Shown here piece after piece: positions 43,107 to 48,811 of a DNA stretch of 64,000 nucleotides. Position 1 is the stretch's first letter; each line of letters begins with the position of its first letter. The notes beneath the pieces are model-generated. The model saw only the letters and a list, made by a program, of their open reading frames with translations. It was not told the origin of the DNA and made no database searches. Source of the stretch: Escherichia phage JEP8; the sequence record MT764208.1; one strand, 5' to 3'. The position numbers and the translations under genes are program-made.

Positions 43107-43196
43107 AGTCTCTTCCTCTCTTCGTTTTCGATGCTCTCACTATATCATAGAAAAATAAAAAGGGAAACCCCTTTCGGAGTCTCCCTTATAAAGCCA

Positions 43197-44236: not shown

Positions 44237-44276
44237 TTCGCACCCTCGCTATTATTTAGGAAATAACCCTTTCGGG

Positions 44277-45746
44277 CTATTCCCCATTACCATTATACTT
44301 TCTTTGCTTAGTTATCCACACTCTAACCATCTCTACTGATTCACCGTCAGACGGATCAAGAGTTTTTCCTTTTTTCTTCATGCGATACTTAAATCCGTTA
44401 AATCTTGCATTCTCTTGCTCGTTAAAGTCGAACATCTTTTTAAATGATTTTCTCCCTTTACGCTCACCACATTCTAGCGGAATCATTCGGTCTGTTATTA
44501 CATTGGCATTAGGTAGAAACGTTTTTAGATAATCCACCAACGCCCAATCAGGAACATATAGATTAACATTCTCCTTGCTCTCGTTGTCTCTCAGGTTACA
44601 ACGCAAACATAATTGAAATGCTGGTTCCAGATAATCAGACACATGACGCGCTTTCAAAAACTCGTTTGTCGGGAGATCACAACTATTAGCAAGACCTTTT
44701 AAAATATCAATCTCCCATCGTTGAGGGTTAAAGCTGAACATCACAGCAACATTTTTATGATGAATGTAAGAGTTAAGACCATAAGATCCGTAAGGTATCC
44801 GCTCACCAATACCATTTGTGCACGCTTCACGGTCCCGATTCACGGTATAAATGAAGTCATCGCCACATTCATTTTTAACCATATCAACAAGACGTTCAAA
44901 GGTATTGTTTGTTTCTGACTGGTGACGCGACCAGCGTTCGGAGTCAGTCATAAGGATGATGTTAACTCTATCTGTATTTTTATACTCTTTGAAATATAGT
45001 CTGGATTCTAGCGCACTCGGAACAAAATCGCAATTTGCATAGTATCGTAGATACTTCCCACTATATGTATCAAAGAGATTTGCACATGCTATCGTAACCT
45101 TTTTAAAGTCTCCCCACGTACCGTGTTTGTTATCGTTCAAGAAAACAATTTTCGACCCATTCTTCCGGTGTCCTTCGTTATGTTTTACCATAACGTTGAT
45201 TTTCTTCTCTAATAACGCCTCATAAAGCCCTCTAAGAGAAGAATCGATCATATCAGTACCATCCTTTGCACTTTCTATCTTTTCTTTGATAGCGGCCTTC
45301 TCAGAGTCTTTTAGAACTAAGTTCTGTAGGCATTCCGATTCGTCGGCGATTGGTTCGCAATGCTTCGTGATAAGTTCAAGATTAGACTTAAACGGATACT
45401 CATTAAATTCAACCAGTTGAGGAACTTCATCAATGTAAAGAGCATATTCACCAAACATTTTTGAACGTTCCATATTAGATAACGCTGTATGTGTAATGAA
45501 TATCACATCAGCACCGTCTTTAACTGATTGCATTATCGACGCTTGCACTGTCTTAAGGCTTCTTAGTCTTGTGCTATCGATCAAGACAGCACGACCGCCC
45601 ATTCTTTTAAACTTATTGTAAGATTGTTCACTTAAAACACGAGATGGCGAAGCAATAACCGCTTTTTCTTTTGTCTCTAGGACGTGGGAAAGTATAGCAT
45701 CAGTTTTCCCCGCCGCTGGCAATGCGATTAATGTTTCAATCTTCAT
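44277..45746 (-). CDS. P-loop NTPase with SF2-helicase-like motifs, function unknown (489 aa)
   Basis: ALPAAGKT (motif I), SPSRVL (Ia-like), YIDEV (motif II) in N-terminal 110 aa; remainder unrecognised. Confidence 0.55.
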   Translation of the reverse strand: MKIETLIALPAAGKTDAILSHVLETKEKAVIASPSRVLSEQSYNKFKRMGGRAVLIDSTRLRSLKTVQASIMQSVKDGADVIFITHTALSNMERSKMFGEYALYIDEVPQLVEFNEYPFKSNLELITKHCEPIADESECLQNLVLKDSEKAAIKEKIESAKDGTDMIDSSLRGLYEALLEKKINVMVKHNEGHRKNGSKIVFLNDNKHGTWGDFKKVTIACANLFDTYSGKYLRYYANCDFVPSALESRLYFKEYKNTDRVNIILMTDSERWSRHQSETNNTFERLVDMVKNECGDDFIYTVNRDREACTNGIGERIPYGSYGLNSYIHHKNVAVMFSFNPQRWEIDILKGLANSCDLPTNEFLKARHVSDYLEPAFQLCLRCNLRDNESKENVNLYVPDWALVDYLKTFLPNANVITDRMIPLECGERKGRKSFKKMFDFNEQENARFNGFKYRMKKKGKTLDPSDGESVEMVRVWITKQRKYNGNGE

Positions 45747-46033
45747 TAGAAACCCTTACGTCGTGCTTTCTGGCATTTCTTGATCATTTTATCAGAAATT
45801 TCGCGCTTAGGTGCAAGCTCTTTCACACCGAAAGCACTAATGCCAAATTCAGAGAGAATATATTCAACCAACAATTCACGCACACGCGCTTTACCGATAT
45901 TCACGCCGTTATTTTTCAGATATGTCTGGCCTTCGACTTGCATCAGATCTAAATCAGCGTCGGTAATATTGATTTCTTCCATGCGCCCAAATCGAGAGTA
46001 AACCATGTGTGCGATTGCATTGTGTACTAACAT
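45746..46033 (-). CDS. hypothetical protein (95 aa), translationally coupled to the NTPase gene
   Basis: Trimmed to ATG after GAGGAA; stop overlaps NTPase ATG (TAATG). Confidence 0.5.
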   Translation of the reverse strand: MLVHNAIAHMVYSRFGRMEEINITDADLDLMQVEGQTYLKNNGVNIGKARVRELLVEYILSEFGISAFGVKELAPKREISDKMIKKCQKARRKGF

Positions 46034-46054: not shown

Positions 46055-46213
46055 TTACTTAATGATACTTACTTTACCAGATCCATGACAATGAGCGCAA
46101 CACCCATCACCACGTAATCCTGTTCCGTTACAGTGTTTACACTTCTTCAACGGTAAAGTCATTATAGCAAATAAAGCAATAATGAACACCGAAACTAAAT
46201 TCTCAATAATCAT
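46055..46213 (-). CDS. small membrane-anchored DnaJ-type zinc-finger protein (52 aa)
   Basis: GAGGG Shine-Dalgarno; hydrophobic N-terminus then CKHCNGTG and CAHCHGSG (CxxCxGxG repeats); not in ORF track. Confidence 0.45.
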   Translation of the reverse strand: MIIENLVSVFIIALFAIMTLPLKKCKHCNGTGLRGDGCCAHCHGSGKVSIIK

Positions 46214-46472
46214 AAATCGCCCTCAGTTCTTTATAGCCTCCAATGTGCTCGTTGTCAATGAATATCTGGGGGTATACAAACCGGAGGCTCTTTGAGTTCA
46301 GCCTCCCCGCCAGTTCTTCAATCATATCACGGTCGGGAATAATGTCAACCCCGACCTGCTTGAATACTGGTTTAAGTGTATACGGAATACCCAGATCATC
46401 CAGTAGCTTCATTGCACTAATACAACCATAACAATGATAAGCCTCTTTAGGTATACCGTATATCTCGATCAT
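46203..46472 (-). CDS. nrdH: glutaredoxin-like protein (NrdH/NrdC family)
   Basis: CYGC active-site motif, YPQIFIDNEHIGGY; position next to nrdG/nrdD. Confidence 0.7.
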   Translation of the reverse strand: MIEIYGIPKEAYHCYGCISAMKLLDDLGIPYTLKPVFKQVGVDIIPDRDMIEELAGRLNSKSLRFVYPQIFIDNEHIGGYKELRAIYDY

Positions 46473-46945
46473 TTCTCAGCCTTTAATCTTTCTAGTTCTT
46501 CTTCCAGTTCCTTGATCCGTTGGTCACGTTCAAAGTCACGCTGTAACTTAGTGGCGAATACTCGTTTAAACTGATTGTAATCATCGATTTTAAACACTTC
46601 TTCTTCGCCATAGCGACGCACAGAAACTTCGTAGTTATTGAAGAATTGTTGCATCATTGCTTCGGATGATAGTTCTGCTGATACTACTTTAAAATATTGA
46701 TCTTCGGTAGGTGAAAACCAATTACAAGCATAAAGATAAACCTTTTCATTGTCTGGACACTGATAAGCCTTACCATCGATTTCAATCACAGAAACATATT
46801 CAGGTATACTGGATGAATCAATAGCTAAGACTTTAAACGCACGGTCCCCGATAAACTCGGAGATCACACGATTCGCATCACTGGTTGCAAATGCTTTACG
46901 CGCTTGTTCGTTTTTCCACTGATAGGTCATACCAACAACAAACAT
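46469..46945 (-). CDS. repeat-domain family protein (1 copy) with C-terminal coiled coil
   Basis: GMTYQWK..FKVL..IEIDG..W.. domain; ERDQRIKELEEELERLKAEK tail. Confidence 0.55.
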   Translation of the reverse strand: MFVVGMTYQWKNEQARKAFATSDANRVISEFIGDRAFKVLAIDSSSIPEYVSVIEIDGKAYQCPDNEKVYLYACNWFSPTEDQYFKVVSAELSSEAMMQQFFNNYEVSVRRYGEEEVFKIDDYNQFKRVFATKLQRDFERDQRIKELEEELERLKAEK

Positions 46946-46946
46946 A

Positions 46947-47771
46947 TTACCAACCTCGCTCTTTACCGATCAAAAATTCAACTTCACGACGTTTAATATC
47001 TTCTTGAAGGTCTTTAATCTTCTGGCGATCTTGCATGATTTCGTCCATCTTGTCAAGTGCTGTAATGAAATCATCGAAACGTTCAAAGGTTTTACCTTCA
47101 TTTGCTTCGCCAAATTTAACCATTGTCAGGCCGTAACGACTACTAAACAGACGTTTCAACTGTCCAACGATCTTAGAATCAGTAGTGACGACTTCCAATT
47201 CTTCTACTTCTTGAAAGAATTTTCTATCAGAATCAATAAACCAGCTAATTCCTTTATGGTCTTTATCTTCGGTTGCACTCATTAGAGTATGGTCTTTACC
47301 ATCAATTTCAATTACATCAATTTGCCCACATGGACTAACCTTTTTAACAGTAAAAGGTCTATAATTTATTGCTCGTGCAATAACATAATTAAGGTTTGAT
47401 ACGTTTTCAGCATAATGGCAGAAGTCGGTCATAGCATTCGCATCTTTCCAAGTATAAGTTTTACCAACTTCCCATTTCTGGGGAACTTCTTCGACTTCAC
47501 GAAAGAATTTTCTATCGAATGGACTAAAGAAATATGTTGCAGTCCAAATGTCTTTTCCTGTAGCAGTTTTCGCCGTATGATAAACACCGTCTAGCTCTAT
47601 TGCATCAATCCAACCGTTACCCTCGATCTCGATGATGGTAAATGGCTTGTCACCAATAGCTGCACTAATATCGCTGTTAAGTGGAGAAAGAACACCTTCT
47701 CCGTTAGTAATAAACTCAGTTTTAGCGTTTTCGTCTTTCCAAGTGTAAGTTTTACCAATTTCCCATTTCAT
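46947..47771 (-). CDS. repeat-domain family protein (2 copies) with C-terminal coiled coil
   Basis: MKWEIGKTYTWKD.. and QKWEVGKTYTWKD.. internal duplication, each ending DRKFF.EV. Confidence 0.55.
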   Translation of the reverse strand: MKWEIGKTYTWKDENAKTEFITNGEGVLSPLNSDISAAIGDKPFTIIEIEGNGWIDAIELDGVYHTAKTATGKDIWTATYFFSPFDRKFFREVEEVPQKWEVGKTYTWKDANAMTDFCHYAENVSNLNYVIARAINYRPFTVKKVSPCGQIDVIEIDGKDHTLMSATEDKDHKGISWFIDSDRKFFQEVEELEVVTTDSKIVGQLKRLFSSRYGLTMVKFGEANEGKTFERFDDFITALDKMDEIMQDRQKIKDLQEDIKRREVEFLIGKERGW

Positions 47772-47783
47772 AATATATTCCCC

Positions 47784-48269
47784 TTAACCGATTTTATCAA
47801 GTTCGTTTAATGCTTTCTCTGCTTCCTGTATAGCTTGCACTCTTTCCGGCATTTTGTCAAGAAAATCTTTCAACTCTTCAAAACTGGAGATATGACGCAA
47901 GGCATTAGCACCGATAGCCGCATGTGATTTGCATTCAAAGCGGATTTTATAATTATCCATAGCCAATTTGAGAAGATCAATTAGATCATGTTCATGACCA
48001 GGCAATAAAACTTCTTTGAAGCACGCTCGGTCGTCATCGGAAAACCATATATTATCACCAACATCGATAGAACTAATATAATCCCCTTCGTGATTATAGA
48101 TTGAACGTACATTACCCCAACGGTCTACCGTAGCGACAGTAAATGGTTTATCTAGATATGTAAACACACCATCAATATTAGGTTTTTGTTCGTAACGCCA
48201 ACAATCACGCAAAATACGCTTTTCGTCCTCACCAACCAACTTATATGTCTTCCCTTCTTCCCATTTCAT
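47784..48269 (-). CDS. repeat-domain family protein (1 copy)
   Basis: MKWEEGKTYKL..; trimmed to the ATG matching family N-termini. Confidence 0.55.
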   Translation of the reverse strand: MKWEEGKTYKLVGEDEKRILRDCWRYEQKPNIDGVFTYLDKPFTVATVDRWGNVRSIYNHEGDYISSIDVGDNIWFSDDDRACFKEVLLPGHEHDLIDLLKLAMDNYKIRFECKSHAAIGANALRHISSFEELKDFLDKMPERVQAIQEAEKALNELDKIG

Positions 48270-48273
48270 AATA

Positions 48274-48801
48274 TCATCTCTCATTTTTGATACGTGATTC
48301 TAATTGGATCATACGGTCGCGCGTTTGCTTATATTCGCGGATAGCACCGATTCGGCTAGGCATACCATCCAGTACGCTCTTAATACCTTCTAGGGTAGTG
48401 ATTTTAGCAATGCTATTATGCAATCCTGTCTTATCGATCAACTGAATGTCGTAGGCTTCCATAAGCAGACCCAGACGTTCTAAAGTTAGGTCTTCTTCTT
48501 TTTCTTCCGATTCTGGAATCTTAGGTTCAATAGTAACTTCGGTAAAGAAACGACGCTCACCAGCCCAAAACCACACACCGGAACAGCCAATAGGGGATTC
48601 TTTTAACGTCATAGAGTCGAAATCACTACCAATAATAGTAATTTCTCTAACATCACCATCATCGTCAATGTCTTCTACCATAAACGGGCGACCAGCCAAC
48701 AAGTCCACAATACATCTGTTAATAGACGACGAAAATTTAGTCAGTTCGGCTTTCGACGCTTCGCATTCAATCTTGTAAGTTTTACCAACTTCCCATTCCA
48801 T
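48274..48801 (-). CDS. repeat-domain family protein (1 copy) with C-terminal coiled coil
   Basis: MEWEVGKTYKI.. after GAGGTGA; ERRFFTEV. Confidence 0.55.
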   Translation of the reverse strand: MEWEVGKTYKIECEASKAELTKFSSSINRCIVDLLAGRPFMVEDIDDDGDVREITIIGSDFDSMTLKESPIGCSGVWFWAGERRFFTEVTIEPKIPESEEKEEDLTLERLGLLMEAYDIQLIDKTGLHNSIAKITTLEGIKSVLDGMPSRIGAIREYKQTRDRMIQLESRIKNER

Positions 48802-48811
48802 AATAATCACC

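Follow-up and report, generated by a model that had tools for sequence, protein, structure and literature searches.

What are the two genes that separate gene 55 from nrdH in Escherichia phage JEP8, and do they belong together? We analyzed a window of 64,000 nucleotides of this phage (sequence record MT764208.1), the whole stretch of DNA considered here. It belongs to a Krischvirus (RB49-like), and its 43.7-46.5 kb portion is 99.1-99.5% identical to E26, JSE, RB49 and 55 others. A first-pass annotation had described a coupled pair in this interval, an SF2-like P-loop NTPase of 489 residues and a partner of 95 residues, and had taken them for a cargo module with a possible role in anti-defence, host takeover or DNA modification. 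The open reading frames themselves were confirmed. Both lie on the minus strand between gene 55 and nrdH, where the gene for the 95-residue protein (45746-46033) adjoins, on the upstream side, the gene for the 489-residue protein (44277-45746), and the stop codon of the first overlaps the start codon of the second in TAATG. The explanation that we consider the probable one, with some reserve, is that these are two separate, vertically inherited early genes: a homolog of T4 gp55.2 and an accessory DNA helicase of T4-like phages with the architecture of XPD and DinG.

The smaller gene is the counterpart of RB49 gene 55.2. Its product matches Pfam DUF7570 over profile positions 1-94 of 94 (E 1e-28) and phrog_1475 (E 1.5e-32), and aligns end to end with T4 ORF 55.2 at 42% identity over 96 columns (BLASTP, E 6e-20), a match also recovered by tblastn. 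The counterparts in RB49, Aeromonas phage 65 and RB16 are annotated as 55.2, and the gene comes after nrdH and before gene 55 on the map, as in T4. Members of the family have the core IGKxxxRExxVxYILxEFGxxAFGV and mostly a basic C-terminal tail, which the window protein also carries; an AF2 model of the 95-residue protein is all-helical (pLDDT 86). The start codon is an ATG with GAGG before it. An alternative TTG start six codons upstream would give a protein of 101 residues, and the RB49 annotation uses the 95-residue form. A function can accordingly be proposed by homology for a partner that had been described as of unknown function. The contrast that had been drawn with T4, where the interval was said to hold only small 55.x ORFs, also dissolves: the 95-residue ORF is itself one of them, 55.2.

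T4 gp55.2 is small and helical. It is a DNA-binding protein and an inhibitor of E. coli topoisomerase I (Mattenberger, Silva and Belin, PLoS One 2015, PMC4396842), and blocks the relaxation of negative supercoils by the host enzyme. Its overexpression is toxic, extra topA suppresses the toxicity, and 55.2 is an early transcript that confers a measurable fitness advantage on T4 (PMC4396842). By analogy with T4, we infer that the 95-residue protein does the same, binding DNA and stopping host topoisomerase I from relaxing negative supercoils. The host-takeover role suggested earlier fits 55.2, by homology, and does not fit the two proteins acting jointly.

The larger protein is 100% identical to RB49ORF044c and falls in phrog_2467 (E 9e-175), a family labeled "unknown function"; its ORF is preceded by AAGGG. 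A weak Pfam DEAD/DEAH match of RB49ORF044c was tabulated in 2006 (PMC1524935), and the record of phage W115 labels the gene "putative helicase", whilst in the literature we found no functional study of members of RB49ORF044c/phrog_2467. Sequence searches place the protein only loosely. DEAD is the sole Pfam family above threshold and barely passes, at 27.4 bits against a curated cut-off of 26 (E 3e-6). Pfam DEAD_2 and Helicase_C_2 gave no match at E<=1, a search of NCBIfam found nothing, and searches of the PDB with the single sequence or with a 30-sequence profile returned nothing useful. Alignment of the family profile with E. coli DinG by hhalign gave a probability of 0.5%, that is, no signal.

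Conservation was read from an alignment of 30 homologs that are 33-74% identical. Motif I (Walker A) is ALPAAGKT, residues 8-15, encoded at 45702-45725 on the minus strand, with P10, G13, K14 and T15 invariant. SPSRVL at residues 33-38 resembles motif Ia. Motif II (Walker B) is YIDEVP, residues 104-109 (45420-45437, minus strand), with D106, E107 and P109 invariant. PAAGKT (residues 10-15) and DEVP (106-109) are both invariant or nearly so. These are the motifs that the first-pass annotation had quoted and, since they are (nearly) invariant across the 30 homologs, they are not a product of chance. Conservation extends well beyond them. A motif III-like IACAN, residues 219-223 (45078-45092, minus strand), follows a strand at 216-221 and ends in the nearly invariant N223. 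A motif VI-like FQLCLRCNLR, residues 377-386 (44589-44618, minus strand), has F377, Q378, L379, C380, R382 and R386 invariant; R382 and R386 are candidate arginine fingers. Further invariant or near-invariant positions are FITH (83-86), the xAN that ends at N223, Y300, N303, R306, G323, N325, N340, W344, the series P375-F-Q-L-C-x-R382-x-x-x-R386 and VPD (398-400).

The same residues persist at much greater distance. When 1.8 billion cluster representatives were searched with a profile of the family, 1320 relatives came out at E<=1e-3, 758 of them at E<=1e-10. Among relatives that are 20-28% identical, G-K, D-E, G..N, Q...R...R and the aspartate of VPD are invariant in short and long forms alike. 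Invariance at this distance suggests that purifying selection maintains a working ATPase. The long forms (phrog_31024; 750-890 residues) retain the helicase core in full, its invariant catalytic residues included, and differ in a C-terminal extension of about 350 residues with an invariant LDxDxGD, which the window protein does not have. A PriCT_2 primase-associated domain scores above the Pfam threshold in one of 30 long forms, and two others give faint primase-related matches. On these counts we did not adopt the idea that the long forms are helicase-primase fusions, and the DNA-replication ancestry that such a link might imply is kept as a lead only. Among isolate phages, the long form occurs only in jumbo phage Atu_ph07, and it is nearly absent from isolate phages and plasmids. 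The genes around the relatives in Atu_ph07 and PH357 are all hypothetical, and the neighbors of a further relative (P0043) were uninformative.

We further characterized the 489-residue protein by structural modeling. The AlphaFold model is confident (pLDDT 87.9, pTM 0.77) and can be read as a first RecA domain (residues 1-111 and 206-255) that is interrupted by an insertion (112-205), a second RecA domain (256-418) and a basic helical tail (419-489). The first RecA domain holds Walker A and Walker B, and a second RecA-like domain carries the putative arginine finger of motif VI, as in SF2 proteins. The earlier assignment to the SF2-type P-loop NTPases is borne out by motifs, Pfam DEAD match and model fold. 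The insertion, delimited from the secondary structure of the model, comprises 94 residues (45132-45413, minus strand) and falls between motifs II and III. The Arch domain of XPD sits in this position. Whole-chain structural matches to the model were XPD (3crv, score 18.0), Finegoldia DinG (17.9), type IV-A CasDinG (17.5), yeast Rad3 (17.4) and S. tokodaii Xpd4 (17.2). The XPD-family matches extend over 320-341 aligned residues, where other two-domain SF2 proteins reach about 240-260; global TM-scores are just 0.41-0.49. The closest overall fold is that of XPD/Rad3/DinG, down to the accessory insertion at the Arch position of motor domain 1, and this likeness is structural only. The approximately 380 residues that had been left unmatched are, from these structural matches, the rest of an SF2 helicase core with XPD/DinG architecture.

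The Fe-S domain of XPD, Rad3 and DinG contains four cysteines between motifs Ia and II. A 4Fe-4S domain is absent from the 489-residue protein, which has no cysteine before residue 130; C130 and C380 are the only cysteines invariant in the family. This absence is no bar to the wider XPD/DinG family, because CasDinG and S. aureus DinG also lack the Fe-S domain. On the evidence of the model, we describe the protein as built like an XPD/DinG helicase and do not file it in that family, since membership is undetectable by sequence.

The Pfam DEAD family is dominated by RNA helicases and, as the sole family above threshold, it invites the reading that the 489-residue protein acts on RNA and has no role on DNA, as a helicase or chaperone for the remodeling of the degradosome or of phage or host transcripts. 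We consider this quite improbable. Over the whole chain, XPD/DinG-type DNA helicases match better, with a lead of about 4 Z units and about 80 additional aligned residues, the genomic neighbors are DNA-related, and the protein has no DEAD-box Q motif, D-E-A-D or SAT, with DEVP and CAN instead. We prefer DNA over RNA as the substrate because the best whole-chain matches are DNA helicases and the neighboring gene encodes a homolog of a DNA-binding protein, gp55.2. The DprA-like gene that overlaps the start of the helicase gene in Tulanevirus, and the one long-form relative with PriCT_2, speak for DNA as well. As a DNA helicase, the protein would be a stand-alone SF2 ATPase with two RecA motors, an insertion in the Arch position, a basic helical tail and no Fe-S cluster. 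It would use ATP to unwind or translocate on DNA, probably in the 5'-to-3' direction like its structural relatives. Many SF2 proteins translocate on nucleic acids or remodel them without unwinding.

To get a broader picture of how the helicase is inherited, we looked at its distribution. A tblastn search found it in 243 phage records (Aeromonas 77, Escherichia 53, Cronobacter 19, Enterobacter 18, Citrobacter 12, and others). It is found at this locus in T4-like phages that infect Aeromonas, Proteus, Serratia, Cronobacter and E. coli, and is 33-44% identical in distant genera. In most of the 34 helicase loci surveyed from IMG/VR and GenBank, across several genera, gene 55 follows the helicase gene directly. 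The exception is the RB16/RB43 type, which is rearranged so that gene 34 follows the helicase, with 55.2 and the helicase still together. Identity to the window protein tracks gp55 identity (Spearman 0.87, n=25), and the GC content of the gene (0.38-0.39) matches its surroundings (0.39-0.42 in the flanks). The helicase is thus an old, vertically inherited resident of T4-like genomes, and not the cargo that it had been taken for. T4 and its close relatives lack it, which suggests that it is dispensable in the T4 lineage. T4 has the 87-residue 55.1 in its place; we rejected 55.1 as a helicase remnant since the two have no similarity.

The competing view, that the genes form a mobile cargo pair in a hypervariable interval and serve anti-defence, host takeover or DNA modification, has several observations to recommend it. 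The interval from gene 55 to nrdH is hyperplastic in T4-type phages (PMC4396842; PMC2839356), T4 gp55.2 manipulates a host enzyme, and the defence-linked SF2 helicases CasDinG, Hna and DdmD are among the structural matches. In addition, a relative from the bacterium Neptuniibacter is part of a small island, with an integrase on one side and a resolvase on the other. We nevertheless give this view little credence. It sits poorly with a helicase that keeps its locus across genera, diverges in step with gp55 and shows no compositional anomaly, and the window contains no flanking repeats or mobility genes. Neither protein has a meaningful match in PADLOC, where the only match of the helicase was marginal and off-target (E 0.0088) and the 55.2 homolog had none, so that the proposed anti-defence or DNA-modification role found no backing there. 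Nor does the presence of the helicase follow DNA-modification status. Gene 42 has been reported in Aeromonas phage 25, as in 44RR and 31, and phage 25 has the helicase (P0034); a tie between the helicase and unmodified-cytosine genomes was rejected on this ground. Both RNA-helicase and anti-defence roles are less likely than that of an accessory DNA helicase.

We then asked how tightly the helicase and 55.2 are joined, using a 55.2 profile built from the 34 loci. Thirty-three of them have a 55.2 homolog upstream of the helicase and on its strand. The two genes abut or overlap in 24, are 68 nt apart in one further locus, and are separated by one to three genes (0.8-2 kb) in 8. In Tulanevirus the DprA-like gene intervenes, and in Serratia phage Muldoon three small ORFs lie between the two. 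In the remaining locus (L023), the helicase is found between nrdH and gene 55 with no detectable 55.2. Conversely, T4 has 55.2 without the helicase, and single-sequence searches returned 1092 phage records for 55.2 and 243 for the helicase. Pairing is frequent, loose and not obligate. The description as a coupled pair therefore holds for the usual arrangement, with 55.2 upstream in nearly every locus, and fails as a rule, given T4, L023 and the separated loci.

The junction in the window reads ...GGTTTC TAATG AAG..., in which base 45746 is common to the stop and start codons. We considered this overlap as the mark of a dedicated two-gene operon and rejected it: 8 of the 16 same-strand junctions from 40.9 to 49.5 kb are overlaps, and at a further 3 the genes are one base apart. 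The TAATG overlap is little informative because such junctions are typical of the region whatever the function of the genes.

Signals that might govern transcription were sought on either side. A consensus scan found a sigma-70-type promoter-like site (TTGTCA, 18-nt spacer, TATCAT; 10/12 matches) on the minus strand at 46062-46091, ending 29 nt upstream of the start codon of the 55.2 homolog, and a stronger one (TTGACA, 16-nt spacer, TG-TATGAT; 11/12) on the same strand inside nrdH at 46348-46321. Such sites are consensus matches in an AT-rich region and weak evidence, the 15 seen being barely above the 9.9 expected in shuffles; the site at 46062-46091 is kept within Krischvirus only. At the other end, RNA folding predicts a stem-loop of 13 bp with a GAAA loop across the helicase stop codon (44257-44286, minus strand). 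Its dG is -20.1 kcal/mol (z -3.8), and none of 200 shuffles fold as well. A 40-nt spacer separates it from gene 55. No T-run follows the stem-loop, so it is not a classical intrinsic terminator; Serratia phage Muldoon has an annotated terminator at the equivalent place. With a promoter-like site and a strong hairpin bracketing the pair, co-transcription is plausible. It would be weak evidence of shared function because the genome is so tightly packed. The promoter-like sites upstream, together with the early transcription of 55.2 in T4, suggest that the helicase is made early in infection.

A closer relationship can be envisaged, in which the two genes form a functional module for DNA topology or R-loops. 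In such a module, 55.2 would block or redirect topoisomerase I, and the helicase would act on the resulting structures or together with the topoisomerase. Blocking topoisomerase I, a type IA enzyme, would lead to more negative supercoiling and more R-loops, and these would offer a substrate to an XPD/DinG-like helicase. DinG removes R-loops, and partnerships between a helicase and a type IA topoisomerase are found in RecQ-Topo III and reverse gyrase. The module would account for the high count of loci with 55.2 upstream on the same strand, mostly abutting or overlapping, and for the persistence of the pair in RB16/RB43-type genomes although gene 34, not gene 55, is the downstream neighbor. The bracketing promoter-like site and hairpin, the presence of DinG among the structural relatives, and the action of gp55.2 on DNA and topoisomerase I (PMC4396842) are also consistent with it. 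We regard it as unlikely all the same. In T4, 55.2 acts alone, with 55.1 in the place of the helicase (PMC4396842), and the search with 55.2 brought up about four times as many phage records as that with the helicase. L023 has the helicase without detectable 55.2, one to three genes intervene in the 8 separated loci, and overlapping junctions are typical of the region regardless of function. Functional cooperation between the helicase and 55.2 is a possibility to which synteny alone points.

More specifically, 55.2 might hand topoisomerase I to the helicase, or gate it, to make a phage-directed machine of helicase and type IA topoisomerase like RecQ-Topo III or reverse gyrase. We consider this highly improbable. 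Were it true, such a machine might serve to control R-loops at origins of replication or to dissolve recombination intermediates, and it would be ancestral, T4 and its close relatives having lost the helicase and kept only 55.2.

Taken together, we favor two separate genes, each with its own role. The accessory DNA helicase would act on intermediates of replication and recombination, such as forks, D-loops and R-loops, working alongside the core helicases gp41, Dda and UvsW. These three are among the Core Genome genes of T4-like phages, some flagged as Quasicore (PMC2993671), and because of this listing we take the helicase to be an addition and not a replacement.

T4-like phages are a reference for the enzymology of replication and recombination, and this helicase was presumably overlooked because T4 lacks it. 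It is present in at least 243 sequenced phages, and the family built around it counts more than 1300 protein clusters. Its structural class offers a concrete biochemical hypothesis, and its usual place beside 55.2 raises a possible link between supercoiling control and helicase action. If it is an ordinary accessory helicase, the main gain is the better annotation of two "hypothetical" genes. The family of its partner is already characterized; what remains is a widespread XPD/DinG-like helicase of non-T-even T4-like phages, which merits biochemical attention but will not surprise a specialist.

Compared with known systems, the 95-residue protein resembles T4 gp55.2 in its conserved core, basic tail and map position, and differs in that the RB49-type protein is 13 residues shorter at the C-terminus. 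The loci differ in the next gene, which in T4 is the unrelated 87-residue 55.1 and in Krischvirus the helicase. The helicase, at 489 residues, is much smaller than the XPD/Rad3/DinG proteins, CasDinG/Csf4 and S. aureus DinG included, which have 550-890 residues. Its motif II is DEVP where theirs is DEAH, and its basic helical C-terminal tail (419-489) has no counterpart among them. In T4, UvsW (SF2) and Dda (SF1B) are non-replicative DNA helicases that remodel forks, R-loops and D-loops. A phage-encoded accessory role of this kind is what we propose for the 489-residue helicase.

The helicase-core proteins of 750–890 aa that are related to the phage helicase (the long-form relatives, phrog_31024) carry a C-terminal extension of approximately 350 aa, as seen in P0068, P0076, P0084, P0123 and others in their alignment (A5). 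Three motifs, LDxDxGD, NRxRVxIP and FYxPC, are invariant in this extension, and in P0123 the C-terminal end is formed by a Pfam PriCT_2 domain (E 7.6e-8). Taken together, the extension motifs and the PriCT_2 match suggest that the long-form relatives may be fusions of an SF2 helicase with a primase-like region, encoded in uncultured mobile elements or phages. A bacterial relative of 546 aa lies within a compact island in a Neptuniibacter sp. MAG (L034 5828-11274). There the helicase relative is flanked by ORFs of 94 aa and 80 aa, with a tyrosine integrase beyond the former and a serine resolvase beyond the latter. This integrase-to-resolvase layout points to carriage of the Neptuniibacter relative on a small integrative element.

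In Tulanevirus genomes, such as that of Aeromonas phage 60AhydR15PP (L037 2429-3004), the gp55.2 homologue and the helicase are separated by an inserted gene for a DprA-like recombination mediator (phrog_768, E 3e-65), which overlaps the helicase start codon. The helicase gene match in Escherichia phage vB_Eco_TB34 (H37; OX001802.1, 115270-116735) is split into two pieces at 99% identity, and that record annotates an 'E. furg BREX site' within the gene. A frameshift might account for this, as might a site that was engineered or marked.

In the window, the helicase stop codon is spanned by a stem-loop whose 13-bp stem is capped by a GAAA loop (44257-44286, minus strand; dG -20.1 kcal/mol, z -3.8), and which is not followed by a T-run. 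It may be the stem-loop of a promoter/stem-loop (PeSL) cassette, of the kind described for RB49 and phi1; alternatively, it may stabilize the mRNA 3'-end.

Between nrdH and the gp55.2 homologue lies RB49ORF046c (46055-46213, minus strand; phrog_3931). Its 52-aa product has an N-terminal hydrophobic helix and, after it, two zinc-finger repeats of the DnaJ-type CxxCxGxG form (CKHCNGTG...CAHCHGSG). The Pfam matches are all weak, and involve DnaJ_CXXCXGXG and the final part of Gabija anti-defence Gad1 (E 0.16). Four adjoining genes (46469-48810, minus strand; 158, 274, 166 and 178 aa) look like an array of paralogues, their translations containing five copies of a domain of about 95 aa that starts with W(E/K)xGKTY. 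Of these, the two that were scanned (158 and 274 aa) have matches to phrog_5347 and weaker ones to T4 goF-type mRNA-metabolism modulator families.

The interval between a-gt.4 and gene 47 distinguishes the window phage from RB49. In RB49 it contains RB49ORF040c, a 555-bp HNH/AP2 homing-endonuclease gene (L001 6141-6695), whereas the window has a spacer of a mere 90 nt (43107-43196). Thus, compared with RB49, the window phage lacks this mobile endonuclease.
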